Shown one piece after another: positions 1 to 47,690 of a stretch of 64,000 bases of DNA. Under the pieces are notes generated by a model, which was not told where the DNA came from, ran no database searches, and saw only the letters and a program-made list of their open reading frames with translations. The stretch covers positions 9,672,001-9,736,000 of the forward strand of contig NC_083277.1 of the NCBI RefSeq assembly GCF_963506605.1. The letters run 5' to 3'. Position 1 is the first letter of the stretch. Every line of letters starts with the position of its first letter. Both the position numbers and the translations under genes were made by a program. The DNA comes from Zootoca vivipara (taxonomy: Eukaryota).

Positions 1-233
1 AGACAAAAACATTTCTCTCTCACCAGGATTTTAAACTATCTATGGCCTTTATGCATGGGAGGGATGTTTCATTGTATTGCTTAAAATGCTGTAAGCTGTT
101 TTGAGTTTCTCTGGCAAAAAAGCAACCGGTAAATTTAATAAAAAGAACAAAATAAAGCAACACACAAAGTGGATCGCCTCCAAGCCCAACCCACACTCCT
201 TCTTTCGATTTGACCGCCATTGAGGCCTCTCAC

Positions 234-944
234 CTGCTGCCCGCATCTCTTGCCGTTTTGCCGCCCCAACAGGAAGCCTTCTGCCAGGGCCACCGCCTGG
301 GCACAGCTCTCTGGCTTGCTCTCGCGTACCCAGCTCTGCATCTCCAGGGGCAGGATAATCAGGAACTGCTCCAGGATCACCAGCTCCAGGATCTGCTCCT
401 TGGTGTTCCTCTCCGGCTTCAGCCACTGGCGGCACAGCTCCCGGAGCCTTTGGCAAACATCGCGGGGCCCTTTGGCCTCCTGGTAGCAGAAGTGGCGGAA
501 GCGCTGGCGCTGTGTCTCTGGCCGCAGGGCCCCCTCACTCGTGGCCTCCTCCTTCATCTTCATGAAGGAGTCCAGGCTTCGGTAGACCTTCTGGGCTTCC
601 CCGCCGAGGCCCGGCACAGCCTGGGTCACCCAGCCACCCCTCGGCCACTGCCCGGCATTGGCGACACCTTGGAAGGAGGCCTGGATCTCCTTGGCCTCCT
701 CTCCGGAGACGGGATGAGGCTGCGATCTGGAGTCTGGGGCCTGCACGCTCTGCAAGAACTGCTGCCACTGTGTCTCCCAGTGCTGCTGCTGCAACCCCTC
801 CTCTGGCTCCCGCTTAATCTGTGGTGGGAGATCCTTGCTCAGGAACGTCCCGGTGCTCCCCACATGGACCACTTGCGGGGCTCTCTTTCCTTCCCCCTGC
901 ATCCCCTGCCACAATTTGGAGCCGGCCATGTCCTGCGCCTCCAT
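234..944 (-). CDS. Gene 1: SCAN-domain coding exon of a SCAN-ZNF-type gene; downstream exons lie left of the window
   Basis: SCAN motif [50 protein letters not shown]...[14 protein letters not shown] in aaaATGg context at 944, acceptor ttttgctctgcag before 1101, donor CAG|GTGAGA after 234. Confidence 0.9.
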
Positions 945-2048
945 TTTCAGAGGTTCTGGGGTGCCTGCAACCAGCTGCGTCCCCCTGCTTCTCTTTCAGA
1001 CTATTCCAGTCTCCCACTTCCAATGGGGGACAGCCTCCAGTGTCTTAACCCTCTAGAGTTAAGGGGCTTCTCTTGGAGTCACAATCAAGGGGCAGTGATA
1101 GCTGCAGAGCAAAAGAACATAAGGAGTGGATTTGTAAAGACTTTCTTTTTCTGGCTAAAGTGTTTGTAAAAGCTGAAAATCAAAAATTAAAATTAAAAAA
1201 GGAAGAAGAGTCCTGCTCTGGTTTACAGCACATTGAAACATCAAATAAAACAATCCAGGGCAGGCATAGGCAAACTCCAGCCCTCCAGATGTTTGGGACT
1301 ACAGTTCCCATCATCCCTGACCACTGGTCTTGCCAGCTGGGGATGATGGGAATTGTAGCCCAAAAACAGCTGGAGACCAAAATTTGGGAGACACTGGGTT
1401 ACAGTGTCGGAAAAGGACCTGAGAGAATCCCCACCCAGTCATGAAGCTCACTTGGTGACCTTGGGCCAATCACAACCTCTGTACCTACCTCACAGGGTCG
1501 TTGTGGGGATCAACTGAGAGGGGGAGGTGAACCATGATGTACTCCTTGGATAAAAAGGCGGGATATAAATGCAACAAACAAGCTCTTCTGCTTAAGAAAG
1601 CTGGTGGGGGGAGCCAGATGGAGATGTCAGTCGCATCCAGAGATCTCCACATGGTCATGACTCCTCCATGAATTTATCTAATCCTCTGTTGAAGCCATCC
1701 GAGTGTCACTGCCTGCCAGACTACAGCTCCCTACCCCACTGGTTTTCGGAGGAGGTGGGCAAAATCTTGCCTTTGCAGGTTTCCACCCTTACTAACAAGA
1801 AGCCACAGATTTGGAGGTCAGACCCAAGCGAAATTGAAGTGTGCCCCCCCTCTCTCTCCACCCCCCCCCCCGCGTATTTTTGCATCTCTCAGCAGGCTGT
1901 TCTCCTCTTCCCCTCCCCTCTCGCCTTGCAAAAGCGGTTTCGCCCTTTTGCAGCCCGGGGTTCCCTTTGCAGCAGCTGCTGCTGTTCCTTTGTGCTGTGA
2001 AATTATTTCTAACCTTTCAATGCCCACCCCTCCACCCCCACTTTTTGC

Positions 2049-6603: not shown

Positions 6604-8054
6604 TGTTATAAGGGGCAGGGTAAGAGGAATTTGCCCCCATGCATTACGAGACTACCAATGTACAGAGAGGGGACAGTTTAGCCAGAGAGAAGCCATTTTC
6701 TTGACTTCATGGTTCAAAAGTCAAGAGAAGCCTATTCTGCCGTATCAAGGTAAATTAATCCCCTGCTGACCCAGACAGTTCCTCCAGACCTCTTGGAAAA
6801 CACACGCACCCTTTTACATAACCCATTGCTAAATCCTGTCTCACACCCACATGGAAACTTGCATAATCGCACCTCCAGCCAGATAACCAAAAACGATAAC
6901 GATCACCCATTCTCGGAACTTCCACCCTCCCAAATCCCCGCCTGAGGTGCCCTCCCTTGTACTTTTCATGACCCAGATTCAGCTGAACCATGGACCTTTT
7001 TAAGATATATATATTTATCCCTAATAAACTATTCCGTTGTTCCTTTAGTAATGTTATGGTGTCCTCTATCATGTTACCCGATGCATCTCCCTATTCTCTA
7101 CTCTGTATGAAACTGTATCTATTTACGAAACCGCAATAATATAACCTTGCACTGATACCTTGAACCTTTCTATCAAATTGTACCTGTTTAAAAAATCCTG
7201 CCATCCTGAAGAATTAATTGTTTGACTCTACTATTTGCAAAGGTTTCCACTTATGCACCCTTCTAAGCTTTTAGTTCGTTGTCCTTGATAAAATGTTATA
7301 AGCTGTCAAACATCGCTCTGAACTGTGAACGTTTTACCGCTGTTAGAATTGTATCCTCTCTGTGTATTATTAGTTACTGTATAATATCTTCTTCTTCTTT
7401 AACTTTAAGTGTAGTCTTTTCTCTCTATTGCAAACGTTGAATATTTGTATAAACTTTGTTGCAAGTTAATAGGCACCTCTGTGGCACAACATATTTTACG
7501 GACTGTTTCCACTTCTTCTTGATACCACACTGCCACCTAGCCAGTCTAAAAGAGCACGACTCAAATACACACTTTCAGTGAGAACAACAATTTTATTTGA
7601 TAAACAGGTGTTATCAACAATCTTCCCACATCCGCAGAGTCTTCCTGTCAAACAATAAGGAGACATGCATAATCATTACCTGGACTATCACCATGATATC
7701 TTACATCAAGAATTCCATCAACCCCTTTGTCCTCTCGCGATTACCCCCTCCCAGAACCCATTTCCCCACCTTTTATGCAATTCTGTACTATTGGAAATGA
7801 AACCTATAAATTTGTGAAGCTTCCTTTGTTCGGGGTCCCTTCACTTCAACTTGCTTGTGTGGACGGATCGCTATTGCAATAGCTTTATTATTTAATTAAT
7901 AAAGTACCTTGCTTCGTACGTCCTGGTTTGGCCTCTGTTATTTGGTAGGCAGGAGACGCTCAAACTTCGTCTGCCTGCCAGGATACCTGGACTCTTCCTG
8001 GGTCAAGGATCCACTTAATTCTAGGACCGTGTAGCTCTGCAAATTTTTACAACA
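6604..8054 (+). repeat. 5' LTR (1451 bp)
   Basis: TGTTATAAGG...TTTTTACAACA; TATAAA at 7805-7810, AATAAA at 7898-7903; direct repeat of 16481-17931 (offset 9877). Confidence 0.97.
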
Positions 8055-8057
8055 GTT

Positions 8058-8075
8058 TGGCGACCACTTCGGGGA
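8058..8075 (+). promoter_or_regulatory. Primer-binding site, tRNA-Arg(UCG)-like
   Basis: TGGCGACCAC starts 3 nt after the LTR and matches the first 10 nt of the Arg(UCG) PBS as I recall it (TGGCGACCACGAAGGGAC); the centre is mismatched. Confidence 0.7.
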
Positions 8076-8965
8076 CCCAGTTTTGCCTTGAGCTCCGGGT
8101 TCACTGAGGAAGGGGAGCCCAGCGCGCCCTTGCCTCTTTTGCAGGGGGGTAAACCAACCTCAGGACCCGAGGCGCTTGGTAGTAATTGAGAGTCCAAGCG
8201 GGACCCCCAGGACGAAGCAACGTTTAAAGGGACAAGGCTGTTTTTTCTTCAGGAACCAGTGGGAAGCTGGAGACAACGGGATTCGACTGAAAGGATCGGT
8301 CGTGAGTATTAAAAGGGGACACGCGGTGGGCTGATTACTGCAGCAACTAAAATTCTAAAACTTCACTCTTCACTGTTCTCTCCTTTTCTGTTTCTTATCT
8401 TGGGCTCTAGTTGCAGCTAAGCTGTAAAGGCATAAGGGATAAAGAAGAATTAGAGCCTTTGGGATCCGTCCTTTCGTTAAACGAAATACCCAGAAGGACG
8501 GACCCAGCTCGCTCCTGCCAATCTGCGCAGGAGTTCTGAGCAATCTACCCAACCTTTTTTCCGTATTCCTCTGCTCTTAATCTTCGGGTGAAGCCGCCCC
8601 TAGACACCCCCGATCCCCACCGGGAAGTGACGGGGTTGTTCTAGATCGCAAGGTCACCCGTTCTTTTCAAAAAACCTTCCTTCCAAGGCTAACCACCCGG
8701 CATTGCGTGGGCAAGCGTCCAGGGCAGGTAGTCTTTCTATTAGATTGTAAGAGGCAGGAAAGTTGCTGCAGGACCCTAGGCAATTGATGACCAGAAGGGG
8801 GTCCTTAGGTATCAAGCTGCACCAGGCCGCCTAGTAGTTAGTGCACGCGAACGGCAGGCAGGAACACCACAAGGACGTGGGGGTGAGTCATAGACTCGGG
8901 AAGTTAAGAGTGTCCAGGAACAGGGTCGGGGACCCAGAACTGCAGTATAAAGAGCCAGAATAAAC

Positions 8966-10883
8966 ATGGGTGCGCATAATTCAAAGGAATTCCTGTCCCA
9001 GACTCCCAGCCGTGGCAAAGCTCAATGGAAGCTTCGCCAAAGTGGGGACTCTGAGGATGAAAGCCCATTACAATTCATATTCGAACATTGGCATGAATTA
9101 CCTGGGGTGGAAAAACTTGACAAAAATCGGCTAAAAAGACTCTGTCAGAAAGACTGGATCCGCGTCACTGCGGACCATCCAGAGGGGGAAAAATGGATCC
9201 CGAGAGGTTCCCTTAATGCCCAGCGAATCTCTGCACTAAGAATAACACTGGAAGACCAATACCCCTTGCAAATTCGATATCTCAACTTATTTGAAAAGGC
9301 AAAAATCCTTCTTAAAGGGACTGAAGGTCCAACAGCCCCACAAATGCCAGTAATAACGGAAAGGAGTTCAAGACCCCCACCGTACCAGGAAACAATTATA
9401 GAAGAGCCGGTAGACCAGCTCTGCAGCCCTGCCGAAGCCCCGGCACCATCTCCTTCTAACGCAAACAGACAACGGGAGGCTGAGGTCCAAGACTCCCGGA
9501 GTGCAGTGGAGGGCGGATCTGTAACTCCTGCCATGCCTAGTCTAAGTCCAGCACCTCAGGGCAACCTCGAAGCCCGAATTCCTGCTGAAGTACCCCCCCA
9601 GCTAAGTCCTGTTGCTAGCAGAACTCGTAGTCGTGACCCAGAAACCAATTTAGTGGAGCAACTAGTGACAGTTTTATCGGAATTAAAGGGATCGTCCACA
9701 AAGGAAAGAGACCCCATAGAAAAGGAACCAGAGGCTACCGAGAAAACCCAGGGACAATATCCCTTAAGGTCAGTCCCAGTTTCAGATGGGACGAACTTCG
9801 TCTATTCCCATGTTCCCTTTTTAACCTCAGACCTACTGAATTGGGCTCAGCAGATGTCGACCTTAAAAGACAATCCTGACATGTGCTATCGTAAAATTGC
9901 CATTATTTTTTCTACTCATAATCCCTCCTGGGCAGACGTACACATGCTCCTGAATGGTCTTTTTAATGAGCCCGAACGGGAGGAGATTTTAGAGAAAGCA
10001 ACAGAAGCCCTAAAATTACCTGATGTCCAACTCAATAAACCTGCAGGGATCGAGCCTCTAACTGCAGCCCAACTTAGAACCGAACCAGAATGGGACTATA
10101 ACACCACGCCTGGGATTTGGTATCTGAAGGCGTTTCGAAAAGCCATCTTACATGGGATAAGGCTCGCGGGAAAAAAATCTACAAATTGGACTAAGATCAG
10201 GGAGGTAACCCAAGAACCTGATGAAACTCCCACCGCCTTCTATACCAGGCTAATAACCGCCTTTCGAACATGGGGGGGGGATCGATCCTGATACCCCAGA
10301 CAACCAAGTAGTGGTGAAAAGCTTCTTTAAAGACCAAGCTTGTCCAGACATCAGAAAATTCCTCTCCCTCCAAGTAGCCTATGAAGGGAAACCCATGAGT
10401 GAGATCCTCGGGCTTGCGAAAACCATTTATGATGGAAGGGATGAGAAAAAGAAAAAGGAGGCAAGGAAGGAAAAGGAGGACGATGCTAGAGTCCTCGCCT
10501 TGGCTTTGAGTGCAGCCAGTACCGCATATAACCCCCAACCTAGTTACCCCTTCAGAAATTCAAAGGCTCCCACACAACCTAGAGGGATGAACGCACATGC
10601 AAATCGACAAGCCTCTCCTTACCAAAGGGCTAACAATGTCCAGCATCGAGAGACCACCTCTCAATGCTTTTTCTGCAATCAAATAGGGCATTTCAAGCGA
10701 AATTGTCCATTATTCTTAAATACCGTGGCACCAAAACCAGCTCTAGGGATGGGATCCAATGCAGCACAAAACCCTAACCCGATAGCGCCAAACCCTTTCC
10801 AGAATCAGCGCCCATTCCAACTACCGCTGGAATTTAACCAGGAGCAAATGCAACCCACTCTTAATTCAGAGACTAACCAATGA
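8966..10883 (+). CDS. gag: Gag polyprotein (~638 aa if the one extra G in the 10272-10280 run is removed)
   Basis: MGAHNS myristoylation motif, PTAP and PPPY late domains, major homology region (IREVTQEPDETPTAFYTRL), single CCHC knuckle CFFCNQIGHFKRNC. ORFs 8966-10291 and 10311-10883 join by deleting one G. Confidence 0.93.
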
Positions 10884-13800
10884 CAATTAAACGGGGATCC
10901 TTCAAACCTTGCCCTGGTATGCCCGACAATTGCCTTATCAGCCCATGACCCCATATGCACAATCACCATAGATGGCCATGAGTATCAGTGTTTACTAGAT
11001 ACAGGGGCAACTTTCTCAACTTTAAACGACAGTCATCTGAGGTCCAGTCAGCAAAAACAACGTATAATGGGCATTGATGGGATCCCCAGGACATGCGCTC
11101 TTTCAGAGCCAGCGAAAGTAACGATAGGGCCCCTGACTGCTGAGCACTCATTTCTACTGACCCCGAGCCCTGTCAACCTACTAGGGCGAGACCTACTATG
11201 TAAATTACAGGCAACTATAACTTGCAGCACTGAGGGTATCTACCTCCACATGCCAGAAGAGGCGGCAGTCTCCTTTCAAGGCATTTTAAAGGAAGAAAAC
11301 CTGACTGATTTAGAAATACCAACCCCTCTGATTGACAAGGTACCAGTTCACCTATGGGGAAATACTAATACCTCTGTGGGACTCTTAAAATCGGCAGATC
11401 CCGTTGTTATTAAATACCGCACTGATGTCCCATACCCCTCCATCAAACAGTACCCCTTGCCGCAGGAGGCAATAGAAGGATTGAGGCCAATGATACAGGA
11501 TTTTATGGATCAAGGCATCCTTGTTCCCTGCGTCAGCCCATGCAATAGTCCACTCCTGCCGGTACGCAAGCCATCACCCCCGGGTGCCCCAGTTAAATAC
11601 AGGCTTGTCCAAGACCTCAGAATTATCAACAACTTTGTGATACCCCGCCACGCCATCACCGCCAACCCTAATACAATTTTGACCGGAATCCCACCAGATA
11701 GTACATATTTCAGTGTCATTGATTTATGCTCCGCCTTCTTTTCCATAAGAGTGCATGAGAAAAGCCAATTTCTGTTCGCCTTTACGTGGGAAAAAGGACA
11801 GCTGACTTGGACTAGACTCCCACAGGGATATGTAGAGAGCCCAACAATTTTTGCTTGTGCATTGCATAGGGACCTACAAGACCTCTCCTTTCCTGCTGGC
11901 TCCTCCCTTTTAATATATGTAGATGACTTGATAATTTGCTCCACCTCCGCAACTAATTGCCACATGGACACCGTCCATCTACTAACCGCCCTTGCCGACA
12001 AGGGCCACAAGGTCTCACCAAAAAAACTACAATATTGCCAAACTGAAGTAAAATACTTGGGCCACATAATTGGCCACGGAACAAGAGCTTTGACAACTGA
12101 AAGAGTAGATGCTATAGCTAAGGTTCCCCTGCCAAAGACCAAGAAACAGCTCCGCGGGTTTCTAGGAATGAGCGGATTTTGCAGGTCATGGATCCCAGGG
12201 TATGGAGAATTAACCAAACCCCTTGTAAAGATGACTAATAAGGACGAACCAGAACCCCTTGAATGGTCCAAAGAAAGCCTACAAAATTTTGAAACTATCA
12301 AAAGGGAACTGAGGTCCGCTCCAGCCTTAGGATTGCCAGACTACCGTCTCCCCTTTTCGCTGTTCGTGCATGAACAGAAAGGGGTAGCCTCCGGAGTTCT
12401 GACACAAACCTTCAGAGGCCAGGAACGTCCTGTCGCCTACTACAGTATTCAATTAGACCCGGTAGCTAAGGGGACTGTAGGTTGCCTCAGGGCAATTGCT
12501 GCCGCTGCGGAATTAGTGGACAGAGCCCTAGAAATCGTTCAAAATCAAGAACTAATCCTAAATGTACCACATGCTGTAGCCACCTTGTTAAACTTACGAA
12601 ACTGTCAACATTTTAGTAACGAACGACTAAATCAGTACGAAGCTGCCCTGCTCACACCATCCAACGTGCGCATTAAAAGAGTCAATACCCTAAATCCAGC
12701 CACCCTACTGCCTCTGCCCGACGACGGGACCCCCCATCACGATTGCACCTTAGCAGTCCGCTTGGCCGAAAGGCCACGGGAAGATTTAGACCACCTTCCC
12801 TTGGAAAACCCAGATATCTCAATCTTTACAGATGGAAGTTCCAAGGTCGTGGCTGGAACAAGACAAACTGGGTACGCTGTGGTAACACACGACACCATCC
12901 TAGAAGCTGCACCTATAAACCCGCGCTACAGTGCGCAGGCAGCTGAGCTTATTGCCCTTATCAGAGCTTGCGAATTGAGTGAAGGCAAGCGCGTAAATAT
13001 CTATACTGATTCCAAATATTGTTTCGGACTGGTACACGCTACGGGTACCCTCTGGAAACAGAGGGGATTCCTAACAGCTGCAGGAACACAAATCTCTCAC
13101 GCACCGCTAGTGAAAAGACTAATGGACTCCATACATTTCCCGAAGGCCATCTCAGTAATACACTGCAAAGTACACACAAATGGCACGGACTTTGTCTCCT
13201 TAGGGAATAGTATTGCGGACGCCGCTGCCCAGAAGGCAGCGGCCATGAGAGGGGAAATGTATGAAAATGAATTTCAAGCCATCTTAGTTCCAGCCGATGT
13301 AGACTTCAATCGAATGTATCGCACCGCTAGTGTAGAAGAAATAAGCTCATGGCAACAACTGGGGGCACACCAAAGGGACAATGCGTGGGTTTTGCCGGAC
13401 GGACGTCTAGCAATGCCTAAAGCCTGGGTACCCCGCCACCTCCGGGTTTTACACAATTTCACACACTGGGGAGCAAACCGCCTAGCAGACAGCATCCTTA
13501 GGCATTGGTATGCCCCAGGTGCACACCAATTTGCGAAGGCAGTATCCAAAAATTGCACCATCTGCGCCGGATTCAACCCAAAACAAGAACCACGCAAACC
13601 ACCAGGGTCTAGACCTTGGGCATATATACCCTTTGAAAGCCTACAACTAGATTTTGCAGAACTCCCGAACTGTATGGGGTTTAAACAATTACTTGTCATA
13701 ACAGACCGACTTTCAGGTTGGCCAGAAGCTTTTCCATGCAAACGAGCAAATGCTCAAACCGTTGCCAAAATCCTCATGCAGGAAATAATTCCCAGATACG

Positions 13801-14690
13801 GAGTTCCACGTCGATTAGACTCTGACCGTGGGACACATTTCGCTGCAGAGGTAGTTCAGTCTGTCACCAAGGCATTTGGAATTAAATGGGAACTCCACAC
13901 CCCGTACCATCCGGCCTCTTCAGGTCAGACGGAGCGGATGAATGGACTTATAAAAACCCAATTGGGAAAAATCTGTAAGGCTACCGGGCTAAAATGGATA
14001 AATGCTCTTCCGTTAGTCCTACATAATATTCGTAGCCAGCCGAGAGGACTCTTGAAACTATCTCCCTATGAACTCCTGTTCACCAGACCCTCCCCGACTC
14101 ATACCACCCAACTCCCCGTCTCTGAGCTAGAGACTGGGGAAAACGAACTGACTGTATATGTTACACAATTACAACGACAACTAAAGAAACTACACCATTA
14201 TGCAGCAACCTGTCAGAATGTTCCCCTTGATGTCGATGCTCACTCCTTCACGCCTGGACAGTGGATTTGGGTTAAAACTTACAGGCGAGCCACCTTACAA
14301 CCCCAGTGGGAAGGACCCTACCAGATTCTCCTGACGACCCCAACTGCAATCAAGGTCTCTGAACGTTCTGCCTGGATTCATCACACCTTCTGTAAGTCCG
14401 CACCAAACCCCAACGACCTGGGTGACGTTGCAAGGACCTCCCCATCTTCCATCAACTCCACCGAAGACACCGTCCCACTCGACAATCCCGCGCCAGCCAT
14501 CGAATCCCCCCAAGACCCTCCCGAGGAACCCACCTCGATCCCAATAACAGCCAAGGAAGGTGACCAAGGAGACCTGGAGAAGTGGATGTCAAAGATCCTT
14601 GTAGTACCTGAACCAGACGACCCAGATCATCCACCCATACGAATGCAGTTCCGGAAACAGAAATGCCACGACACCGGGAGCGGGACCTGA
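10884..14690 (+). CDS. pol: Pro-Pol (protease, RT, RNase H, integrase), intact and in frame with gag
   Basis: Frame is open from 10884: LLDTGA protease, LPQGY/YVDD RT, FTDGSS RNase H, HHCC plus D-D-E integrase (LQLDF, LDSDRG, QTERMN) and a GPY/F module (WEGPY). Confidence 0.97.
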   Translation, partial: QLNGDPSNLALVCPTIALSAHDPICTITIDGHEYQCLLDTGATFSTLNDSHLRSSQQKQRIMGIDGIPRTCALSEPAKVTIGPLTAEHSFLLTPSPVNLLGRDLLCKLQATITCSTEGIYLHMPEEAAVSFQGILKEENLTDLEIPTPLIDKVPVHLWGNTNTSVGLLKSADPVVIKYRTDVPYPSIKQYPLPQEAIEGLRPMIQDFMDQGILVPCVSPCNSPLLPVRKPSPPGAPVKYRLVQDLRIINNFVIPRHAITANPNTILTGIPPDSTYFSVIDLCSAFFSIRVHEKSQFLFAFTWEKGQLTWTRLPQGYVESPTIFACALHRDLQDLSFPAGSSLLIYVDDLIICSTSATNCHMDTVHLLTALADKGHKVSPKKLQYCQTEVKYLGHIIGHGTRALTTERVDAIAKVPLPKTKKQLRGFLGMSGFCRSWIPGYGELTKPLVKMTNKDEPEPLEWSKESLQNFETIKRELRSAPALGLPDYRLPFSLFVHEQKGVASGVLTQTFRGQERPVAYYSIQLDPVAKGTVGCLRAIAAAAELVDRALEIVQNQELILNVPHAVATLLNLRNCQHFSNERLNQYEAALLTPSNVRIKRVNTLNPATLLPLPDDGTPHHDCTLAVRLAERPREDLDHLPLENPDISIFTDGSSKVVAGTRQTGYAVVTHDTILEAAPINPRYSAQAAELIALIRACELSEGKRVNIYTDSKYCFGLVHATGTLWKQRGFLTAAGTQISHAPLVKRLMDSIHFPKAISVIHCKVHTNGTDFVSLGNSIADAAAQKAAAMRGEMYENEFQAILVPADVDFNRMYRTASVEEISSWQQLGAHQRDNAWVLPDGRLAMPKAWVPRHLRVLHNFTHWGANRLADSILRHWYAPGAHQFAKAVSKNCTICAGFNPKQEPRKPPGSRPWAYIPFESLQLDFAELPNCMGFKQLLVITDRLSGWPEAFPCKRANAQTVAKILMQEIIPRYGVPRRLDSDRGTHFAAEVVQSVTKAFGIKWELHTPYHPASSGQTERMNGLIKTQLGKICKATGLKWINALPLVLHNIRSQPRGLLKLSPYELLFTRPSPTHTTQLPVSELETGENELTVYVTQLQRQLKKLHHYAATCQNVPLDVDAHSFTPGQWIWVKTYRRATLQPQWEGPYQILLTTPTAIKVSERSAWIHHTFCKSAPNPNDLGDVARTSPSSINSTEDTVPLDNPAPAIESPQDPPEEPTSIPITAKEGDQGDLEKWMSKILVVPEPDDPDHPPIRMQFRKQKCHDTGSGT

Positions 14691-14831
14691 AACCCCAGTT
14701 TTTGTTTTACCTTCCCTTTCTCATACCACCTTCCCAAAACCCAACCCAGTTTTCCCACCCTCCTCCCTTATCTTTCTCAAACCCAAAAACCACCACCCCC
14801 TCCCTTCCCTAACTGTATCGTGTCTGTCGAG

Positions 14832-14853
14832 TTCTTTCTTTATTTTTATACAG
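14832..14853 (+). promoter_or_regulatory. env splice acceptor
   Basis: ttctttctttatttttatacag| lies 25 nt before the env ATG; candidate donors GTGAGT at 8302 and 8883. Confidence 0.7.
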
Positions 14854-14878
14854 ATTTTCGCCTCTGCCAACCCGTGAG

Positions 14879-16448
14879 ATGGACCGGACCCTGCTCCTGG
14901 GATACTGTCTCGCCTTCATCACCTACGTCGCAGCCCAGCAGCTCAATTGTGGAGAAAATCCTTCTGAGTTCTTCTTCCTGGATCATCGGACCGTCGACTC
15001 CTCTGACCCTACTTCCTTGAACAACCTTGGAGACTTCAAATTCTGCCTTCCCGGAACTAAGAGGTGGCTACCACATGCCTTTCGACCCCAACTGCGAGGC
15101 ACCCAAACCTGGGAATTACTTATAAGGTCTGCCTCCTTCTCTATATTGGGACGTGCTTTCTTTACCCTTGACCATTCCTGGAACCGGTTAACTTGCCACA
15201 ATGGAACTTCTCATCAGACCCAATGGGGCACCACTATTAAGACTTTTGACCCCGCAGAACAAGGACAAGGACTTTGGGGGGAATACACGGACTCTATGCA
15301 TTATGACTTTTGGACTTATGGATTCATGTGTACCAATCCATCCACTGCTACGACCATTCAAGGTATCTGCGTTCGAAAATTTTGTTGTATATGGGACATA
15401 GGGACGGCATCAACCTGGGAAGGAAATAGGTATGTCGAGGGATGGTTACACTCAGTTGGAGGTGGGGCTAGTACGGAATGGGACCATGTAGGACCCCAGA
15501 GATGCGGGGGAGTCTCAACTGACCTACACTTACTCCACCGACAGGACCCTTTACAGCCCCTCGGCACTGCCCCTAGAAACGTCAACCTTACAGGACTTCC
15601 CTTGCCCCCGCGCATTTCCGATATCTCTGCATGGCAAAGTAATACGTACGTCCAGCTCCTTCAGCGGGCTATTCTGGCTCTGTTCCTCCCGAGGTTATAC
15701 GTGGGTCAGTATTCACATGAGAGGATCCTGCTTCCTCGGCCACATACACCCAGGGTTCCGGGTAACCCAGGACTTACCTACCGGCCGCTTGAGAAACAGG
15801 AGGTCCCCGACTACCCCGTTAAAACCTAAGGCAAAGGCAGAGACCTGGCTCCGCGCAGTGTTCCCAGCCTATGGGGCTTTCTCGAACCATATGGACATCT
15901 TAAAACTAACGGATATTTTGTTGCGGTTCATCAATGAATCTGAGGCCGCCACGCTAGCAGTGTTAACAGAACTCACTCAGGTCCGATCCCTCTCTATTCA
16001 GAACCGCTTGGCTCTTGATCTCCTCCTGTCAGCGCAGGGCGGGACCTGCAAGCTCATCGGGGCGGAGTGCTGTATGTATGTATCCGATCAGACCCTGAAT
16101 ATAACAGCACACCTCCGAGCCATCGATTCCCTAACAAAAGATCTCCACGAGGTGCAGAATGAAGGGGTCTCAGACTGGGATATCTGGTCGTGGCTTCCCA
16201 ATGCCTCCTGGCTCAGGGAAATCGTGAAAGGCACCCTTTTTCTAGCTCTATCTTTGATCCTCCTCCTTACCTCCCTTTGCTGTTGCCTCCAATGTTTCCC
16301 GGCTATGTTAACTCCCCGCAGACAAAAGCCCTCCCCAACCTCCTTTCAAGCTCCGTTATGTCCTTCCCCTGAGTTCCCCGAGATAGTACCGATGTTCCAC
16401 CTTGGGAGTGGGGAGTACATTACCCCGGTGTGCGGAAATAATTTTTAA
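14879..16448 (+). pseudogene. env: env, frameshifted and apparently internally deleted near 15665
   Basis: Signal peptide MDRTLLLGYCLAFITYVAA. The second frame has GLFWLCSSRGYTW...GSCFLG, furin site RNRR, immunosuppressive domain QNRLALDLLLSAQGG, CX6CC (CKLIGAECC) and a TM anchor. No CXXC in either frame. Confidence 0.88.
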
Positions 16449-16468
16449 TTACTTAAAAATTAATCCGC

Positions 16469-16480
16469 AGAGAGGGGAAA
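16469..16480 (+). promoter_or_regulatory. Polypurine tract (PPT)
   Basis: AGAGAGGGGAAA directly before the 3' LTR. Confidence 0.9.
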
Positions 16481-17931
16481 TGTTATAAGGGGCAGGGTAA
16501 GAGGAATTTGCCCCCATGCATTACGAGACTACCAATGTACAGAGAGGGGACAGTTTAGCCAGAGAGAAGCCATTTTCTTGACTTCATGGTTCAAAAGTCA
16601 AGAGAAGCCTATTCTGCCGTATCAAGGTAAATTAATCCCCTGCTGACCCAGACAGTTCCTCCAGACCTCTTGGAAAACACACGCACCCTTTTACATAACC
16701 CATTGCTAAATCCTGTCTCACACCCACATGGAAACTTGCATAATCGCACCTCCAGCCAGATAACCAAAAACGATAACGATCACCCATTCTCGGAACTTCC
16801 ACCCTCCCAAATCCCCGCCTGAGGTGCCCTCCCTTGTACTTTTCATGACCCAGATTCAGCTGAACCATGGACCTTTTTAAGATATATATATTTATCCCTA
16901 ATAAACTATTCCGTTGTTCCTTTAGTAATGTTATGGTGTCCTCTATCATGTTACCCGATGCATCTCCCTATTCTCTACTCTGTATGAAACTGTATCTATT
17001 TACGAAACCGCAATAATATAACCTTGCACTGATACCTTGAACCTTTCTATCAAATTGTACCTGTTTAAAAAATCCTGCCATCCTGAAGAATTAATTGTTT
17101 GACTCTACTATTTGCAAAGGTTTCCACTTATGCACCCTTCTAAGCTTTTAGTTCGTTGTCCTTGATAAAATGTTATAAGCTGTCAAACATCGCTCTGAAC
17201 TGTGAACGTTTTACCGCTGTTAGAATTGTATCCTCTCTGTGTATTATTAGTTACTGTATAATATCTTCTTCTTCTTTAACTTTAAGTGTAGTCTTTTCTC
17301 TCTATTGCAAACGTTGAATATTTGTATAAACTTTGTTGCAAGTTAATAGGCACCTCTGTGGCACAACATATTTTACGGACTGTTTCCACTTCTTCTTGAT
17401 ACCACACTGCCACCTAGCCAGTCTAAAAGAGCACGACTCAAATACACACTTTCAGTGAGAACAACAATTTTATTTGATAAACAGGTGTTATCAACAATCT
17501 TCCCACATCCGCAGAGTCTTCCTGTCAAACAATAAGGAGACATGCATAATCATTACCTGGACTATCACCATGATATCTTACATCAAGAATTCCATCAACC
17601 CCTTTGTCCTCTCGCGATTACCCCCTCCCAGAACCCATTTCCCCACCTTTTATGCAATTCTGTACTATTGGAAATGAAACCTATAAATTTGTGAAGCTTC
17701 CTTTGTTCGGGGTCCCTTCACTTCAACTTGCTTGTGTGGACGGATCGCTATTGCAATAGCTTTATTATTTAATTAATAAAGTACCTTGCTTCGTACGTCC
17801 TGGTTTGGCCTCTGTTATTTGGTAGGCAGGAGACGCTCAAACTTCGTCTGCCTGCCAGGATACCTGGACTCTTCCTGGGTCAAGGATCCACTTAATTCTA
17901 GGACCGTGTAGCTCTGCAAATTTTTACAACA
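16481..17931 (+). repeat. 3' LTR (1451 bp)
   Basis: Same length as the 5' LTR; the ORF track gives identical translations in both copies; no difference found in spot checks. Confidence 0.97.
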
Positions 17932-18045
17932 GGGCCAATACTGAAAAGGCCCTGGCCCTAGTAGAGCCGCCTCTATCCTTAGAATCTATTAATAATTTTT
18001 GTTTTATGCTTGGCTTCTTCTCCTGCCAGATAAATTTTGAAATAT

Positions 18046-20502: not shown

Positions 20503-20632
20503 TCGGCAATCTCGTCGCATCACTCTGCTCGTCCGCAGCTTCTCTGAAGACCTGCCCAGCCCAGGTGTCCTGTGGCAGAAGCTGGCCTGCCTCAGAAGGA
20601 CCGGCAGACATCACCGCAAAAGGCACAGGTAC
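20503..20632 (-). CDS. Gene 2 middle exon (130 nt), degenerate KRAB-A-like
   Basis: gtttcag| acceptor, |GTAAGG donor, phase 0 to 1, open frame VPVPFAVMSAGPSEAGQLLPQDTWAGQVFREAADEQSDATRLP joining the SCAN and finger exons. Confidence 0.75.
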
Positions 20633-21586: not shown

Positions 21587-21722
21587 CAGTCATCCCCAAA
21601 CTCAGCCCTCCAGATGTTTTGGGACTACAATTCCCATCATCCCTGACCACTGGTCCTGTTAGCTAGAGATGATGGGAGTTGTAGTCCCAAAACATCTGGA
21701 GGGCTGAGTTTGGGGGTGCCTG
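21587..21722. mobile_element. hAT MITE
   Basis: TSD GTCTAAAT on both sides. Confidence 0.85.
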
Positions 21723-21771
21723 GTCTAAATGAACCAGCCAGAGAGAGCTTCCCCACTGCAGAATTTCTCAC

Positions 21772-22497
21772 CTTCTGTTCTGGACCCTCCATCTCGTCCC
21801 GGCCCAAGAGGAATTCCTCCGCCAGGGCCACCGCATGGGCACAGCTCTCCGGCTTTTGCTCCCTGACCCAGCTCTGCATGTCTCCCGGCAGGATGCTCAG
21901 GAGCTGCTCCAAGATCAGCAGCTCCAGGATCTCATCCTTTGTGTGCCTCTCAATTTTCAGCCACTGGCCACAAAGCTCTCGGAGCCGGCCATAAACGCCT
22001 CTCGGACCCTCCGCCTCCCGATAGCGGAGTTGCCTGAAGTGCTGCCGCTGCTTCTCCCTCGCAATGGCCTCCCCTTGCAAGATGGCCGCCTTCACCTTCC
22101 TGTAGTCTCCCTTGTCCTGGGCACTGAGGCCGCTGAAGGCCTGCTCAAGGTCTCCGCTGAGAGCCGGCAGGAGGAGGGTCACCCACTTGTCCTGAGGCCA
22201 CCGGCAGGCTGAGGCTACTTGCTCAAAGGAGGCCAGGAAGGCCTTAGCATCCTCCCATGCTGAGGGCTCCTCAGATATCTGTAGGTTCCTGCATCCTGAG
22301 TTGGGGGCCTGCAGCATCCTCAGAAACTCCTGCAACTGGGCTTCCCAGCGTTCCAGCGCCCCTTCTTCCGGCTCACGTTTTATATAATGGGAAGGTGTCC
22401 CAATAAGGAACTGCCCTCTGCCCCTGTGATGTGGGGCTTTTGCTACACCTTCCATTTCTTCCCATGCTCTGGAGCCTGTCACATTTCGCATGTCCAT
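21772..22497 (-). CDS. Gene 2 first coding exon: Gag capsid-NTD-like region plus SCAN (whole protein ~570 aa)
   Basis: SCAN motif RQHFRQLRYREAEGPRGVYGRLRELCGQWLK...; donor AAG|GTGAGA after 21772; acceptor tgttag| before 22674. Confidence 0.92.
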
Positions 22498-22975
22498 TTT
22501 GAGAACCGGACTGCCCCTTCCTCCGCCTCCTCCTCTCGTTTTCTCTCCCGTCTCTTGTCAAAAATGGAGGTGGTCCAAGACCCTCAAGGGGGTCTGCAAA
22601 ATCAGTAGAAGTGGTTTATTTCTAAGTGACGACCAGAAATTCTCAAGCCAAGCCAGCGAGGGAGGCTCTTCCTCCTAACAGCAAGAAACAAAAAATAAGT
22701 GAGAGGAAAGAGTGCTCATTTTATTTTTTTGCTTGTTATTTTGTTAATGTTGTCAATATTGTTTTATAGATTATGACTGCTGTAGTACTTTGTGAATCCT
22801 ATAAGACTTTTGCTGTAATTGTGCTGTTTTCTTCAGGTGGTGGTGGTGTTAATAGTGTTTTATATATTATAATTGTTTTACTGATTATTTTTAATTCTTT
22901 TGCTGGTGATTTGTTATTCATTCTATATGGCACGTATTTGTGATATTGTTGTGTTATTGTTATTTATCTATCCAT

Positions 22976-27830: not shown

Positions 27831-28648
27831 CTACCGCACGTGGATTCTCACGTGGGCCTTCAGTTTCGAACTCTGGTTGAAGCATTTCCCGCACTCGCTG
27901 CACCTGTACGGCTTCAGGCCCTTGTGTATCCGGACGTGGGCGACGAGGCTGCCCTTGACGTTGAAGGTTTTCCCGCAGTCCGAGCACTGGAAGGGCTTCT
28001 CCCCCGTGTGGATCCTCTGGTGTCTGACAAGGTCGGAGTTCATGCCGAAGGACTTCCCGCAGTCCGAGCACTCAAAGGGCTTCTCCCCCGTGTGGACCCG
28101 GTGGTGGCGGATGAGGTCGTAGTTCATCCGGAAGAACTTGCCGCAGTACGAGCATCCGTACGGCTTCTCTCCCCGGTGAATCCGGTAGTGCCGGAAAAGC
28201 CCGTACTTAGTGCTGAAGGATTTGCCGCAGTCCAAGCAACCGTACGGCTTCTCCCCCGTGTGGGTCTTGTGATGTCGGATGAGCTTGTCCTTTGTGCGGA
28301 AGGCCTTCCCGCACTCCACGCATTTGAAGGGTTTCTCTTCTGCCTCGGTCCTCTCGCTTGCCTTGGAGTTAGAAGTCCGTCTGTATCCGGTCAGGGTCAC
28401 AGGCCTCTCCCCGGTAAGAAGTCCGCTCAGTCCTTGGTAAAGGCCCACGCTAGGAATGAGCTGATCCATCCTCTGCCTCGGACAGCTTGCCTGTTGTTGC
28501 CTCCACAGCCCACACAGACCCTCATTCGATCCCGCCCGCTTGCAGTCCTTGAGTCCGTTGGCTCCCTCTCTCTCCTCCAGCATCCCATGTGGTTCTTGCT
28601 CAGAGCTTTCTTGCCTGTGATCCTCTTTCTGCATCGCATACTGCTTAC
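27831..28648 (-). CDS. Gene 3 last exon: 6 C2H2 fingers
   Basis: Acceptor cttccttcag| before 28648, phase 1; six canonical fingers with TGEKP-type linkers. Confidence 0.92.
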
Positions 28649-28717
28649 CTGAAGGAAGAAGGAGAGAGATGAAATATAAAGAACGTCCATACCTTAAGTA
28701 CCGTATCAGGTATCGTA

Positions 28718-28930
28718 CCAGCCACGGGGCCTTCTCGGTAGTGGCGCCCGCCAAGTGGAATGCCCTCCCATCAGATGTTAAGGAAATAAACAACTATCTG
28801 ACTTTTAGGAGACATCTGAAGGCAGCTCTGTTTAGGGAAGTTTTTAATGTTTGATCTTTTACTGTGTTCTTAATATTCTGTTGGGAGCCGCCCAGAGTGG
28901 CTGGGGTAAAATAAATAAATAAATAAATAA
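28718..28930 (+). mobile_element. L2-clade LINE 3' end (partial second tail at ~29107-29235)
   Basis: AFSVVAPAKWNALP...FRRHLKAALF followed by (AAAT)n. Confidence 0.75.
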
Positions 28931-29241
28931 GTTTATCACCACTTCCCATACAAAACAACCCGGACCCTGTGCTTGTCAGCTGAGGCCCTTCTTTATGTAC
29001 CCCCCCCCCCATCCAGAGACGTTCAGAGGGTGGCAACAAGAAAACGGGCCTTTTTTGTGGTAGCTCCCCGACTATAGAATGATCTACAGTTAGCATGGAG
29101 TAATCCCTGTTTAGGGAAGTTTTTGATGTTTGATGTTTTATTCTGTTTTTAATCTGCTGGGAGCCGCCCAGAGTGGCTGGGGAAACCCAGCCAGATGGGC
29201 AGGGTATAAATAAATCATTTATTATTATTATTATTACTTAC

Positions 29242-29365
29242 CGCCTGAGCCAGCATTTCCTCCACACTCATGTTTCACCACATTCCAGATATGCCTGCCT
29301 GCATCTCCCAAAGTAGTTGCCTCATCCGGGACATTCACAACCACCTTCTGAAAGAGACCCGGGCC
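29242..29365 (-). CDS. Gene 3 middle exon (124 nt), degenerate KRAB-A-like
   Basis: gtttcag| acceptor (alternative in-frame acceptor at 29347), |GTAAGT donor, phase 0 to 1, GPGLFQKVVVNVPDEATTLGDAGRHIWNVVKHECGGNAGSG. Confidence 0.7.
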
Positions 29366-30213
29366 CTGAAACATCAAGGGTCACGTTGTTCTATAATTTG
29401 TGTTATTCACAGCATTTAGACACACTTTGTGTAGACCAGTGTTCTTCAAGCTTAGGTTCCCAGAAGTTGCTGGAATACAAATCCCATCATCCCTCGTTGT
29501 TGGCTAAGCTGACTGTGGATGATGGGATTCGTAGTCCAAACAACATCCAAGGCCCAAGTTTCGAAGAACACTGTGATAACTGGGCAAGATGTATCAATGG
29601 TTTGACACGACATAAGGTAGCTTCCTTTGGTTCTTGATCTCGCTACCAGCTATGGATAGTTCAGGATTCCCAGGATGCAAACAGCCTCCTATAAGGATAC
29701 TTGGTTTAAATGTCTGAAGTTGTTTTAACAGACAATGCAAACATAACATATATGCTGCAGGAGTCTCAGCATGCCTTTGGAGACAAATCCTGCATCATAT
29801 AAATTCAATGACAGGAGAAAACTCTCCCCCAGTTGATTATTTTTTATTTGATTGAGGGGGAAATATCTGCAAAACAGCAGCCTTTAACAAACAAACAAAC
29901 AAACAAAAGCAACCCTTGTGATGGCAGCCAGAGCAGTCTGGGCTCGAAAGTGTAAAGATTATCAGGTGCCAATTATATGGGAATGCCTATGGAAATGTCT
30001 TGAATTTGCAAAAAGGCACAAATCAATTGATTTGATCCCTAAGAGGAGCGGTATATTTTACAACACAACATTTGTTGAGAGGTGGGCATTTTTTTGTGAA
30101 TCACTGCGACACAAATTTTGGAAATACTAGACTGGAAACTTTGTTGACTTTAATTTGCACATATTTCGAAGTATACATTATTATTAAAAAATAAATAAAG
30201 GAAACAGCCTCAC

Positions 30214-30963
30214 CTGCTCTTCCCAACTCCCTGCCTCTCCCTGAGCCGGCAAGAAATTCTCCACCAGGGCCACCGCATGGGCACAGGTTTCGGGAGCCTG
30301 ATCCTTCACCCGACTCTGGATCCCTTGAGGCAGGACATCCAGGAACTGCTCCAAGACCAGCAAGTCCAGGATCTCCTCTTTGGTACGTCTCTCCGGTTTC
30401 AACCACTGGCGGCAAAGCTCCCAGAGTCGGCTGCAGGCCTGGCGGGGACTCTCAGCCTGGCGGCAGTGGGACTGCCTAAAGCGTTGCCGGTGCCCCTCTG
30501 TGCTGAGGGCCTCCTCCTCCTCCTCCTTCACTTTGGTGTAGGGGCCCTGTTCTCTTGGATCGAGTTTGACACTGATCTGGTGGCTCACCCCGTTGAGGAT
30601 CGGAAGGCGGTACCCTTCTTTTGGTGGCTGGCTGGCTGCAGTGATGGCCTCAAAAGGGGCTAGGGAAGTCTTCAGGTCCCCCCAGGGAGCCATTTCTGCC
30701 AGCTGTGAGCTCCCCGCCTCAGAGTGGGGTAATTCCATTGCCTTGAGGAAGGCCTGCCACTGGGCCTCCCAGACCTGCTGCAGGCCCTCGCACCCCGCAG
30801 CTCCCGCCTGAGCAGCAGTGTGGGGTTTCTTCCTCGGTCCCTTGGATCCCATCTCAGACTTGGGACCCGCTGGGTCCTTCCTCTCCACTTTCACTTCCTG
30901 CTCCAGCGCTGCTTGGAACCGGAGATCCGGGGCCGGCGACTCCCCCTCCCTCCCTTCCGCCAT
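30214..30963 (-). CDS. Gene 3 first coding exon with SCAN domain (whole protein ~563 aa)
   Basis: RQRFRQ...[33 protein letters not shown]; donor CAG|GTGAGG after 30214; acceptor before 31197 is homologous to that of gene 2. Confidence 0.9.
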
Positions 30964-37171: not shown

Positions 37172-38866
37172 TCACAACAGGGCGATTTCATAGGAGTTCT
37201 CCTCAGTGTGGACTCTCTTATGCTGGCTAAAAGCAAGAGGGTCCGTGAAACTTTCCCCACACACCAAGCAAGTCTGTGGCTCCTCCTTCTCCTCCTGTGT
37301 GTGTGTTTGCATGTGCTTGACAAGAGTTTTTCTGTGAGCGAAGCTCTTCCCACATTCCGAGCACTTATGAAGCCGCTCTCCTGTGTGGATCTGCTGGTGT
37401 TGGAGGAGGCGAGAGCTGACGCCAAAACTTTTCCCGCAATCTGCACATTTATAGGGTTTCTCCCTCGTGTGGGTGAGCTGATGTCGGATGAGGCAAGAGC
37501 TGAGGTTGAAACATTTCCCACAATCCGCGCACCTGTACGGCTTCTCTCCCGTGTGGATTCTCTCATGTACAACAAGGCTCCCCTTCTGACTGAACGTTTT
37601 CCCGCACTCCGCGCATCTGTAGGGCTTCTCTCCAGTGTGGGTCCTCTGGTGCCGAACAAGGTCGTGTTGTATAATGAAGGATTTCCCACACAGTGAACAC
37701 TCGTAGGGTTTCTCCCCCGAGTGGAACTGTATGTGCGACATGAAATTTCCGATCCAGCGGAATCTTTTGCCACAGTCTGAGCATTCGTACGGTTTTTCTC
37801 GTGTGTGAAGTCGCTGGTGCTCAACAAGTTTAGAGTTCACACTGAAGGACCTCCCGCAGTCCAAGCATTTGCATGGCTTCTCTTTCGTGTGGGTTTTCTC
37901 ATGGGCTACAAGGTTCCCTTTGAGGGAGAACTTTTTCCCACACGCTGAGCATTTGTAGGGCTTCTCGCCCGTGTGGCTTCTCACATGTGTGACCAGGTTG
38001 CACTTCTTGCTAAAGCTTTTGCCGCACTCGGAGCATTTGTACTGAGTCTCCCCCGTGTGGGTTCTGTAATGCCTGATAAAGTCAGTGTTCATACTAAAGG
38101 ATCGGCCGCACTCCAGGCACGTGTACGGTTTCTCCCCTGTATGGTTTCGGCGATGTCTGACAAGATCAGCATTTTTGCAGAAGGACTTCCCGCAGTCCGA
38201 GCACTTATAGGGCTTGTCCTCGGTGTGGAGTCTCTGATGAATGACAAGGTTCCCTTTCTGAGAAAAGCTTTTCCCACAGACCGCACAGGCGAATGGTTTC
38301 TCTCCAGTGTGCATTCTCAAGTGAGCAACCAGGTGGCTCTTCGTTCCACAGCTCTTACCACAGTCCGAGCATTCGTACATTCTGTCTCCCATGTGGGTTC
38401 TGTAATGCCTAACGAAGTCAGAGTTCATGCTGAAGGACTTTCCGCAGTCGGCGCATTTGTACGGCTTCTCCCCAGTGTGGTTTCGGTGGTGCCTGGTGAG
38501 GTCAGCGTTCTTACAGAAAGACTTCCCACATTCTGAGCATTTGTACGGTTTCTCTTCCATGTGGATCCTCTCATGGACCGCAAGATGCCCTTTCTGAGAG
38601 AAACTCTTACCACACGCTGAGCATCTGTGCGGTTTCTCCCCCGTGTGGGTTCTCTGATGACTAATAAGGTGAGAATTCATGCTGAAAGACTTTCCGCAGT
38701 CTGGACACTTATGTGGTTTCCCTTCCATGTGGGTGCATGTAGACCTTGGAGAGTCCATCTCACATTCGGTCAATGCCACTTGCTTGTCATTTTTCTCGAT
38801 CTCCTCCTTGGCTGTGATGGCATCTAAATCTTTAAAGTTTTTTGCACACAGAATGGGCTCATCCAT
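37172..38866 (-). CDS. Gene 4: 564-aa protein with 18 C2H2 fingers, no SCAN or KRAB
   Basis: Uninterrupted ORF; candidate acceptor before 39003; in-frame TAG upstream of the ATG. Confidence 0.9.
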
Positions 38867-39572
38867 GTCAATTTCTGGAGGCTGTTGCTTTCTGCCTTCA
38901 CTCCATGCTGAGGGACCCTCTCTTTGGTAGATGTCCTAGTATGTTTCCTTAGCCAAGGGCTTTTGTGCACATGATCCTGGCCATCTTCTCTGCTCAGAGT
39001 TTCCTTATAGAAGAAAGAAAAATTCCTGAGTGAGTCTTAAATCTGAAGGTTGTAAAACCGAAGGTCCTCCAGATGTTGCTGACTACAGCTCCTGTCACCC
39101 CTGATCATTGGCAATGCTGATAAGCTCTGTTGGTAAAGCATGAGACTCTTAACCTCAGGGTCATGGGTTCAAGACCCACGTTGGGCAAAAGATTCCTGCA
39201 TTGCAGGGGGTTGGATCTTTGTGGTCCTTCCAACTCTACAGTTCTATGATGCTATGATGGGAGTTGGAGGCCACATCCACACTATACATGCTGTGGCCTC
39301 TTTCAAAGAATCATGGGAACTGTCCTCTGCTCATGGTGGGGTGAGCTGTTAGAGGAGACCCTCTATTCCCCCCCCACAGAACTACAATTTCCCGAGCAGT
39401 TAAAACAATCAATCCTCCTTCCCAGAGAACTTGGGAAATTGCTCTGGGAGGTATTTCCAAGTTAATATGCGTAGGACCAACTTGGATGGCTTTAAAAGAG
39501 GGTTAGGTAAATTCAGGGAGGATAAAGCTATCAGTAGCTACTCACCCTGATGGCTATGCTTTGCCTCTAGCC

Positions 39573-45224: not shown

Positions 45225-47062
45225 CTATGGTTTCTTCACTGAATGGGCTGCCAAATGTTTGAAAAGGTTCGTTTTACGAGTGAAACACTGACCGCAGTCC
45301 AAGCACTTGTATGGTTTTTCTCCTGTGTGAGTCAACTGGTGCCGAATAAGTTTTGAGCGTATACCAAAACATTTCCCACATTCAGAACACAGAAACGGTT
45401 TCTCCCCTGTGTGCATTTGCTGGTGGCGGATCACAAGGTAACTAAGGCTAAAACATTTGCCGCAATCGGTACACTTATATGGTTTCTCCCCTGTGTGGAT
45501 CCTCACATGGACAATGAGGTCTCCTTTCTGGCTGAAGCTTTTCCCGCACTCAGAACACTTGTACGGTTTCTCTCCTGTGTGCATTCTCCGGTGTTTAGTA
45601 AGCTCAGAGTTTGTATTAAAGGCCTTATCACAGTCTGAACACCGATAGGGCTTTTCTCCACTGTGGTTTCTCATATGAATAATGAGATTTTGCTTGTAAT
45701 TGTAGCTTCTGCCACAGTGCAAGCATCCATAGGGTTTCTCATACGTCTGCGATTGCTCCCCTGAATGGACGATTATATGTTTGAGAAGGCCATCTTTCCG
45801 GCTAAAGCTTTTCTTACAGTCCGAGCATTCATATGGTTTCTCGCCCGTGTGGGTTCTCTGATGTCTAAGGAGATCAGAGTTCATAACAAAGGATTTCCCA
45901 CAATCCAGACATTCATATGGTTTCTTCTCTGAGTGGAACTGCAGGTGTGCTGCGAGTCTCCCTTTCCAGATGAAGCTTTTGCCGCAGTCTGGACATTCGT
46001 ATGGAGCGTCTCCCGCATGGAGTCTCTGATGTGCAATAAGTTTGTAGTTTGCTTGGAACGATTTGCCGCATTCCAAGCATTTATACGGTTTCTCTTCTGT
46101 GTGGATTCTCTCGTGAAGAGCGAGGTTTCCTTTCCGAGTAAATTTCTGCCCACAGTCTGAGCATTCGTATGGCTTCTCCCCAGTGTGGATTCTCCTATGT
46201 GTGGCTAAATGAGATTCTTGCCTGAACCTCTTGCCACAGTTCCAGCAGTCGTAAGGTTTGTTTTCTGAGTGGGTTCTGTAATGTTTAAAGACTTCCGAGT
46301 TTGTAGTGAAAGATTTCTCGCACTCTGAGCATTTGTACGGTTTCTCCCCGGTATGGGTCCTGGCGTGTGCAACCAGGTTACATTTCTTATTGAAGCTTTT
46401 GCCGCATTCTGAGCATTCATGTTGCTTCTCTCCTGTGTGGGTTCTGAAATGTATAATAAAGTCAGAATTCATGCTGAAGCTTCTCCCGCACCCTGAGCAC
46501 CGATACGGTTTCTCCCCTGTATGACTGCGCTGGTGTCGAAGGAGGTCAGCGTTCTTACAGAATGATTTCCCACAATGCAAACACTTGTACGGCTTCTCTT
46601 CTGCATGGATTCTCTCATGCATAGCAAGATTTCCTTTCTGAGAGAAGCTCTTCCCACATACGCTGCATTCATAGGGTTTCTCCCCTGTGTGGGTTCTATA
46701 ATGTCTAATAAGGTTAGCGTTCCTACAGAAGGTTTTCCCACAGTCTGAGCACTTATACGGCCTCTCTTCTGCAATGTAGGAGCTGTTATCACATTCCGTT
46801 GAGGTTACTTGTCCCTCATCCTTCCCTTTTGCCTCCTTGGCTGAGATTTCATCCAGGCCTTTGCTGCTTTCTGAACATCTAATTGTTTTATTTAATATCC
46901 CGCTGGGATTTCCCACCCATTGTCTCCAAACAGCTTCCACCTTCATAATGCACTGGGTATCTTGCTCTTTGGCTGTCTGCGCTGCTGCCTGGAGTGGCTC
47001 CCTCAGCTCAGAGCTCTTCAGCTCTTGGTTCTTGTTAGCTTCCTCATTCAAAGGCTCCATAT
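45225..47062 (-). CDS. Gene 5 main exon: 18 C2H2 fingers, no SCAN or KRAB
   Basis: Acceptor tttccttcag| before 47062; ATG at 47060; intact ORF. Confidence 0.92.
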
Positions 47063-47690
47063 CTGAAGGAAAGAGAGATTCAACTGTGAGTCGACACCCT
47101 ACATCCAGAGAGACAGATACTGAATACGTCCCATACATTTAAAGCACATTTTCATCCCCAAAAAATCCTGGGAACTTCCGTTTGCTTCTCACAGAGCTAC
47201 AATTCCTAGCAGCCTCAATGAATTACAGTTCCTGGGATTCTTTGGGGTATGGAGGAGGCTGTGCTTTAAATGACGTGCACATAGCCTTGGCCTAGCGACC
47301 ATGAAGCCTGAGGCAAGGCGAGACAGTCAAGCTACTCTGAAGGGACTATTGCTGAGTGGTATTTATTATTTATTTGTTTTTAAGTACTTTTTATACCAGC
47401 TTTTATACCACTGTCATGGAGGTTCACAATGCTATGAAGTATTAGTATACATTATATCCACACTAAGGGAGCTGCAATGACTGTCCATCAGCTACCAGGC
47501 CACATTCAAAGTCTTTTGTGACACACACATAAAAGCCCTGAATAATTTGGAGGCCGGGTTACCTGAAAGACCCCCCCACCCCTGAAGAGACCCTGTAATA
47601 ACACATCAACGACCTGAGGAAAATTTTATTCGTGACACTGCACCCTACAGAGTATCACAAGGCAGAGCTATTTCTATATCTATTTGATAG

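Follow-up and report, generated by a model that had tools for sequence, protein, structure and literature searches.

The window analyzed here is the whole of a 64,000-nucleotide (nt) stretch of the Zootoca vivipara genome (RefSeq assembly GCF_963506605.1, contig NC_083277.1, positions 9,672,001 to 9,736,000), and the gene under study is a minus-strand zinc-finger gene whose first coding exon encodes an extended SCAN module (Table 1). Its three coding exons have GT-AG ends and join into a frame of 570 amino acids (aa) with zero internal stops. The gene model is based on splice signals and on the matching annotation: P0016, a Z. vivipara protein annotated as 'zinc finger and SCAN domain-containing protein 31-like' (ZSCAN31-like), is identical to the product over its full length (570 of 570 residues). 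The peptide quoted in a first-pass annotation of this DNA lies on the minus strand in the open frame 21637-22557, where position 22251 corresponds to residue 83 and position 21808 to residue 230. That annotation had described an intact 570-aa gene in which the quoted segment runs straight into SCAN; exons, splice ends and the identity to P0016 agree with this.

SCAN was recognized at residues 148-234 by Pfam PF02023 (expectation value (E) 3.4e-36; 123 bits, cut-off 27), and the region matches solved SCAN structures with E 3.6e-22. Exon 3 contributes four intact and two decayed C2H2 fingers. A KRAB profile, which recovered 15 of 15 KRAB control proteins, gave zero matches in the protein or in the six frames of the window, and the KRAB-A box that marks KRAB zinc-finger repressors is accordingly lacking. 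Being a spliced host gene that has SCAN, a contiguous extension homologous to the Gmr1 capsid and, downstream of these, a tandem array of C2H2 fingers, it is near certainly a member of the ESCAN (extended SCAN) zinc-finger family. A Gmr1-like retrotransposon would instead carry Gag, then protease, integrase, reverse transcriptase (RT) and RNase H between long terminal repeats (LTRs); in the window gene, an intron and a finger exon follow.

Table 1. Features of the window (positions count from its first letter)
Feature	Position	Strand	Basis or remark
Coding exon 1, residues 1-242, entire extended SCAN module	21772..22497	-	ATG and GT donor located; identical to P0016
Predicted helix, residues 45-63	22309..22365	-	Kept in squamate ESCAN proteins; model helix H9-27
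Capsid N-terminal lobe (N-lobe), residues 78-141, four predicted helices	22075..22266	-	
SCAN domain (capsid C-terminal lobe), residues 148-234	21796..22056	-	Pfam PF02023; solved SCAN structures
Coding exon 2, 130-nt linker, KRAB-less	20503..20632	-	43% identity among orthologues
Coding exon 3: linker, 2 decayed fingers, 4 intact C2H2 fingers (18378-18058), stop codon	18046..18902	-	
Neighbor gene 1, SCAN exon with decayed N-lobe, at window edge	135..995	-	N-lobe profile 40.2 bits, SCAN 145 bits; alignment
Neighbor gene 3, modeled 557-aa SCAN zinc-finger gene, 6 fingers, strongly decayed N-lobe	27831..30963 (exons 30963-30214, 29347-29242, 28648-27831)	-	N-lobe profile 21.5 bits, SCAN 121 bits; model from splice signals only
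Long finger open reading frames, 18, 18 and 21 fingers	37172-38935, 45225-47138, 53802-56306	-	Similar finger runs

The segment upstream of SCAN resembles the Gag of Gmr1-like elements. A metagenome scan confirmed five loci among 166 candidate stretches. L001:386-4801, in a metagenome contig, is a single uninterrupted 1471-aa frame ordered SCAN, integrase, RT and RNase H, which is how bioRxiv 2025.03.03.638093 orders Gmr1-like elements. The L001 Gag can be aligned gap-free with the lizard protein over residues 82-233 of the latter (59 of 152 identical, 39%; E 8e-35), and the upstream segment alone is identical at 24 of 59 positions (E 1e-14). Searching with the Gag region of L001 gave 7526 representatives at E<=0.001, and the best 150 listed yielded 79 Gag-like proteins; to these, the studied gene shows 35% identity over the segment and 36% over SCAN. 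An N-lobe profile built from host copies matches 46 of 46 Gag-like proteins that carry a knuckle or protease motif. Judged from sequence, homology to Gmr1-like Gag is far beyond chance and the segment corresponds to that Gag's N-terminal capsid lobe, collinear with SCAN, as had been proposed when it was taken for the rest of a Gmr1-like capsid. What sets the gene apart from such an element is that it has introns, lacks protease, integrase and RT, and carries C2H2 fingers where the nucleocapsid knuckle was.

A quick tree built on 88 chosen rows places every finger-bearing copy in a host clade of 54 rows separate from the retrotransposons (SH-aLRT, an approximate likelihood ratio test of Shimodaira-Hasegawa type, 99); three fingerless unnamed proteins nest inside it. 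The position of the studied gene within this clade suggests descent from a single host capture, with no fresh insertion. Single capture and a marked squamate expansion of SCAN have been reported (bioRxiv 2025.03.03.638093).

Of 593 candidates in a search with the segment, 201 proteins matched. The 120 matches listed of these 201 are all squamate (geckos, skinks, lacertids, iguanians, anguimorphs and snakes, with Anolis relatives included) and, apart from the gene's own record, are 60-86% identical to the segment; 105 of the 120 have at least two C2H2 fingers and three have KRAB. Five turtle proteins and one alligator protein are among the best 120 of 163 matches from a search for long proteins; neither set of 120 shows whether mammals or birds lack such proteins. 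Annotations from other squamates join the ESCAN exon to DNA-transposase-type or other non-C2H2 domains in P0024, P0086, P0092, P0107, P0117, P0178, P0180, P0195, P0199 and P0213 (precomputed Pfam: PF02892, PF05699, PF03221, PF03184, PF13837, PF14291). The long squamate models P0001-P0015, P0017 and P0147-P0152 have at least two ESCAN modules, and some may be fused annotations of adjoining genes.

Seven probable orthologues (Zootoca, Rhineura, Hemicordylus, Elgaria, Sceloporus, Python and Crotalus) were grouped by tree (SH-aLRT 96) and by common linkers and fingers, not by synteny. Their mean pairwise identity is 78% in the N-lobe, 80% in SCAN, 71% in the fingers and 39-45% in the linkers, figures to be read with the fact that the orthologues were found through lobe similarity; the N-terminal helix region (residues 39-63) reaches 75%. 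The excess of lobe over linker identity argues against neutral evolution, which the first-pass annotation had named as refuting its proposal. The lacertid finger array is shorter and more altered than those of the orthologues.

A two-lobed capsid fold is predicted, the models having predicted local distance difference test (pLDDT) scores of 86.4 and 85.4. Ranks 1-23 of a structure search with the full module are SCAN or capsid chains. The N-lobe alone is predicted to fold confidently, and its best structural matches are Arc and PEG10 lobes, the closest solved folds including Arc N-lobes with bound peptides. A capsid fold is therefore predicted for the N-lobe, as the first reading of the locus had anticipated. 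The helix at residues 45-63 is modeled with pLDDT of about 66-78, and N-lobe helix 4 runs into SCAN helix 1 as one unbroken helix between the lobes. Arc, PNMA2 and PEG10 share this predicted two-lobed fold, but they represent separate domestications (12-17% identity), are not tandem C2H2 factors, and have been shown to form particles, whereas the protein studied here is known from its sequence and predicted fold. A Podarcis lilfordi model (P0051) splices from inside N-lobe helix 4 directly to exon 2, skipping SCAN; a donor-like sequence for this splice is also present in the window at about 22090 (-), and the model may be an isoform or an annotation artefact.

Within this fold, squamates have remodeled the N-lobe. 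Residues 85 and 116 carry a positive and a negative charge, respectively, in 41 of 49 squamate rows, as they do in 133 of 158 host copies from the segment searches. Gag-like rows show the opposite pair, negative and positive, in 72 of 79 cases. Also replaced is the Gag-type strand preceding helix 1 (residues 67-77, 5% identity to the Gag-like set), and a profile of the residue 45-63 helix matches none of 46 Gag-like proteins and one of eight non-squamate or unnamed host proteins. By eye, of ten finger-bearing copies that are from turtles or alligator or are unnamed, nine have both the Gag charge state and a Gag-like strand before helix 1. The studied copy is thus probably further from a working Gag than the turtle and alligator copies. 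The turtle and alligator finger proteins P0171-P0175 and P0177 have two ESCAN modules each, with the Gag-like features lost in squamates, and appear the better candidates for retained capsid behavior. A search of the open library found no mention of squamate remodeling of the ESCAN lobe.

This remodeling bears on the idea that the protein co-assembles with Gmr1/Gypsy Gag and spoils its particles or captures their DNA, as RTL8 does on PEG10 particles. The full two-lobed capsid and its 39% identity to Gmr1-like Gag favor such a role, targeting of retroelement capsids by SCAN has been proposed in print together with lizard proteins predicted to bind Gmr1-like DNA (PMC4592553), and RTL8 antagonism of PEG10 particles is a precedent (PMC11684626). 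However, because squamates have swapped the 85/116 charges and replaced the N-terminal strand, co-assembly is disfavored. The lobe is also highly conserved across paralogues rather than diversifying, Gmr1-like elements are reported to be depleted in mammals and in reptiles other than turtles while ESCAN genes expanded (bioRxiv 2025.03.03.638093), and PMC4592553 itself states that experimental evidence is lacking. Poisoning of Gypsy particles, raised in the first-pass annotation, is weakened by the remodeling and the reported scarcity of these elements, and we regard Gag co-assembly as very improbable.

Another rival reading is self-assembly, in which both lobes would still be assembly-competent and, going further than SCAN dimers, would bring several finger arrays together on chromatin in rings or lattice patches. 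In its favor, each lobe is intact, and the two are collinear and conserved to the same degree; the charge swap is reciprocal and implies a kept contact; the conserved extra N-terminal helix could aid oligomerization; and some relatives carry tandem ESCAN copies. Yet the 85/116 contact may lie within one chain, and two features seen in Ty3 differ: the N-terminal extension, which may help to stabilize three- and five-fold positions (PMC6525542), corresponds to the strand replaced in squamates, and the flexible linker between the Ty3 lobes (PMC6525542) is a single continuous helix in the model. Self-assembly seems possible but unlikely. A more specific form, rather doubtful, has squamate ESCAN proteins assembling through both lobes but re-keyed by the charge swap and the new N-terminal helix to exclude Gag, with rings or lattice patches clustering finger arrays on chromatin and decayed-lobe paralogues capping or ending the assembly.

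Two further SCAN genes lie in the window. Against the host-built profile the N-lobe of the studied gene scores 121 bits, compared with 40.2 for neighbor gene 1 and 21.5 for neighbor gene 3; medians are 53 bits for Gag-like proteins and 120 for 303 host copies, the latter value being circular because these copies went into the profile. As two of the three SCAN genes in the window have let the lobe decay while keeping SCAN, the N-lobe is optional for the family. The first-pass annotation had imagined a multi-part system of SCAN-only and finger-only partners sharing a promoter motif. The supposed SCAN-only neighbors both carry a decayed N-lobe, and gene 3 models with six fingers. The finger-only neighbors hold up as three finger frames within the window, for which profile searches found no SCAN or KRAB exon within its bounds. 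The motif was left unnamed; our guess at it is ACTACAnnTCCC, which we take to be the likely candidate. It occurs in 25 copies, 16 of them inside one interspersed repeat of about 145 nt that lies mostly in introns and between genes. With decayed ESCAN genes as neighbors, the multi-part system is unsupported, and the locus looks like an ordinary tandem cluster of zinc-finger genes.

A gammaretrovirus-like provirus occupies 6604-17932 (+). The end of its right LTR lies 113 nt downstream of the stop codon of the studied gene, within what is presumably the 3' untranslated region. Its two 1452-nt LTRs are identical throughout and it is flanked by a 4-bp target duplication, which suggests a very recent insertion; pol is one open frame, and gag and env are each spread across two frames. 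Fragmented frames at 61743-63843 (+) may resemble the reverse transcriptase of a long interspersed nuclear element (LINE).

Decay of the lobe in both adjoining paralogues would also fit a structural passenger that folds with SCAN and stabilizes the dimer but lacks its own partner, as would its reported absence from the mammalian form and the predicted continuity of helix 4 with SCAN helix 1. SCAN folds on its own in five solved structures, however, the lobe alone folds confidently in prediction, and its conservation across lizards and snakes matches that of SCAN; a passenger role is quite improbable.

The reading we consider probable is that this spliced ESCAN gene encodes a KRAB-less nuclear factor that binds DNA through four fingers and dimerizes through SCAN, its N-lobe serving to bind protein on chromatin and not to form particles. 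By analogy with the family, the four intact C2H2 fingers would bind DNA in the nucleus, SCAN would pair with itself or with paralogues, and transposon-derived sequence may be targeted, as by mammalian SCAN zinc-finger proteins; more tentatively, the retained, predicted N-lobe would bind protein on chromatin. This reading is favored by the gapless Gmr1 Gag match, the single finger-bearing host clade, the fingers in 105 of the 120 matches listed and the conservation of the lobe. It also accords with peptide-bound Arc N-lobes, the optional lobe of the window paralogues, and mammalian SCAN proteins, which are reported to dimerize selectively and to anchor nucleosomes on DNA of transposon origin (bioRxiv 2025.03.03.638093). 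Mammalian SCAN zinc-finger proteins (ZNF24, MZF1, PEG3 and ZNF174) are alike in SCAN, a C-terminal finger array and clustered genes, and the studied SCAN is 46-48% identical to ZNF24 and PEG3 in structural alignment; the solved mammalian domains match the C-lobe only, whereas the lizard protein retains the N-lobe and an extra N-terminal helix.

ESCAN zinc-finger genes were described in Anolis by Emerson and Thomas in 2011, as related in PMC3406341, PMC4592553 and PMC8321522, with a full-length Gmr1-like capsid domain at the N-terminus of tandem C2H2 genes. The present gene has the same arrangement and no defining difference, although it is KRAB-less and has only four intact fingers. SCAN has also been placed among co-opted gag genes (PMC8321522, PMC10516033), the latter excluding SCAN from its analysis, and the word 'extended' does not occur in the available part of bioRxiv 2025.03.03.638093. 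The first-pass account stands for anatomy, origin and predicted fold, and is wrong on novelty: what it put forward as its best candidate for an uncharacterized system belongs to a published family with at least 201 database relatives, for which capsid targeting was already proposed in print.

The studied gene is an ordinary representative of a family that has been in the literature since 2011. The gap lies in the many reptile genes that keep a capsid N-lobe as conserved as SCAN, and a search of the open library returned no test of ESCAN assembly or of the N-lobe's role. The window offers a natural series of lobes, intact, partly decayed and strongly decayed, to which the turtle and alligator copies add a Gag-like state. 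If the lobe does drive assembly, ESCAN would be a large transcription-factor family using capsid geometry to organize chromatin.
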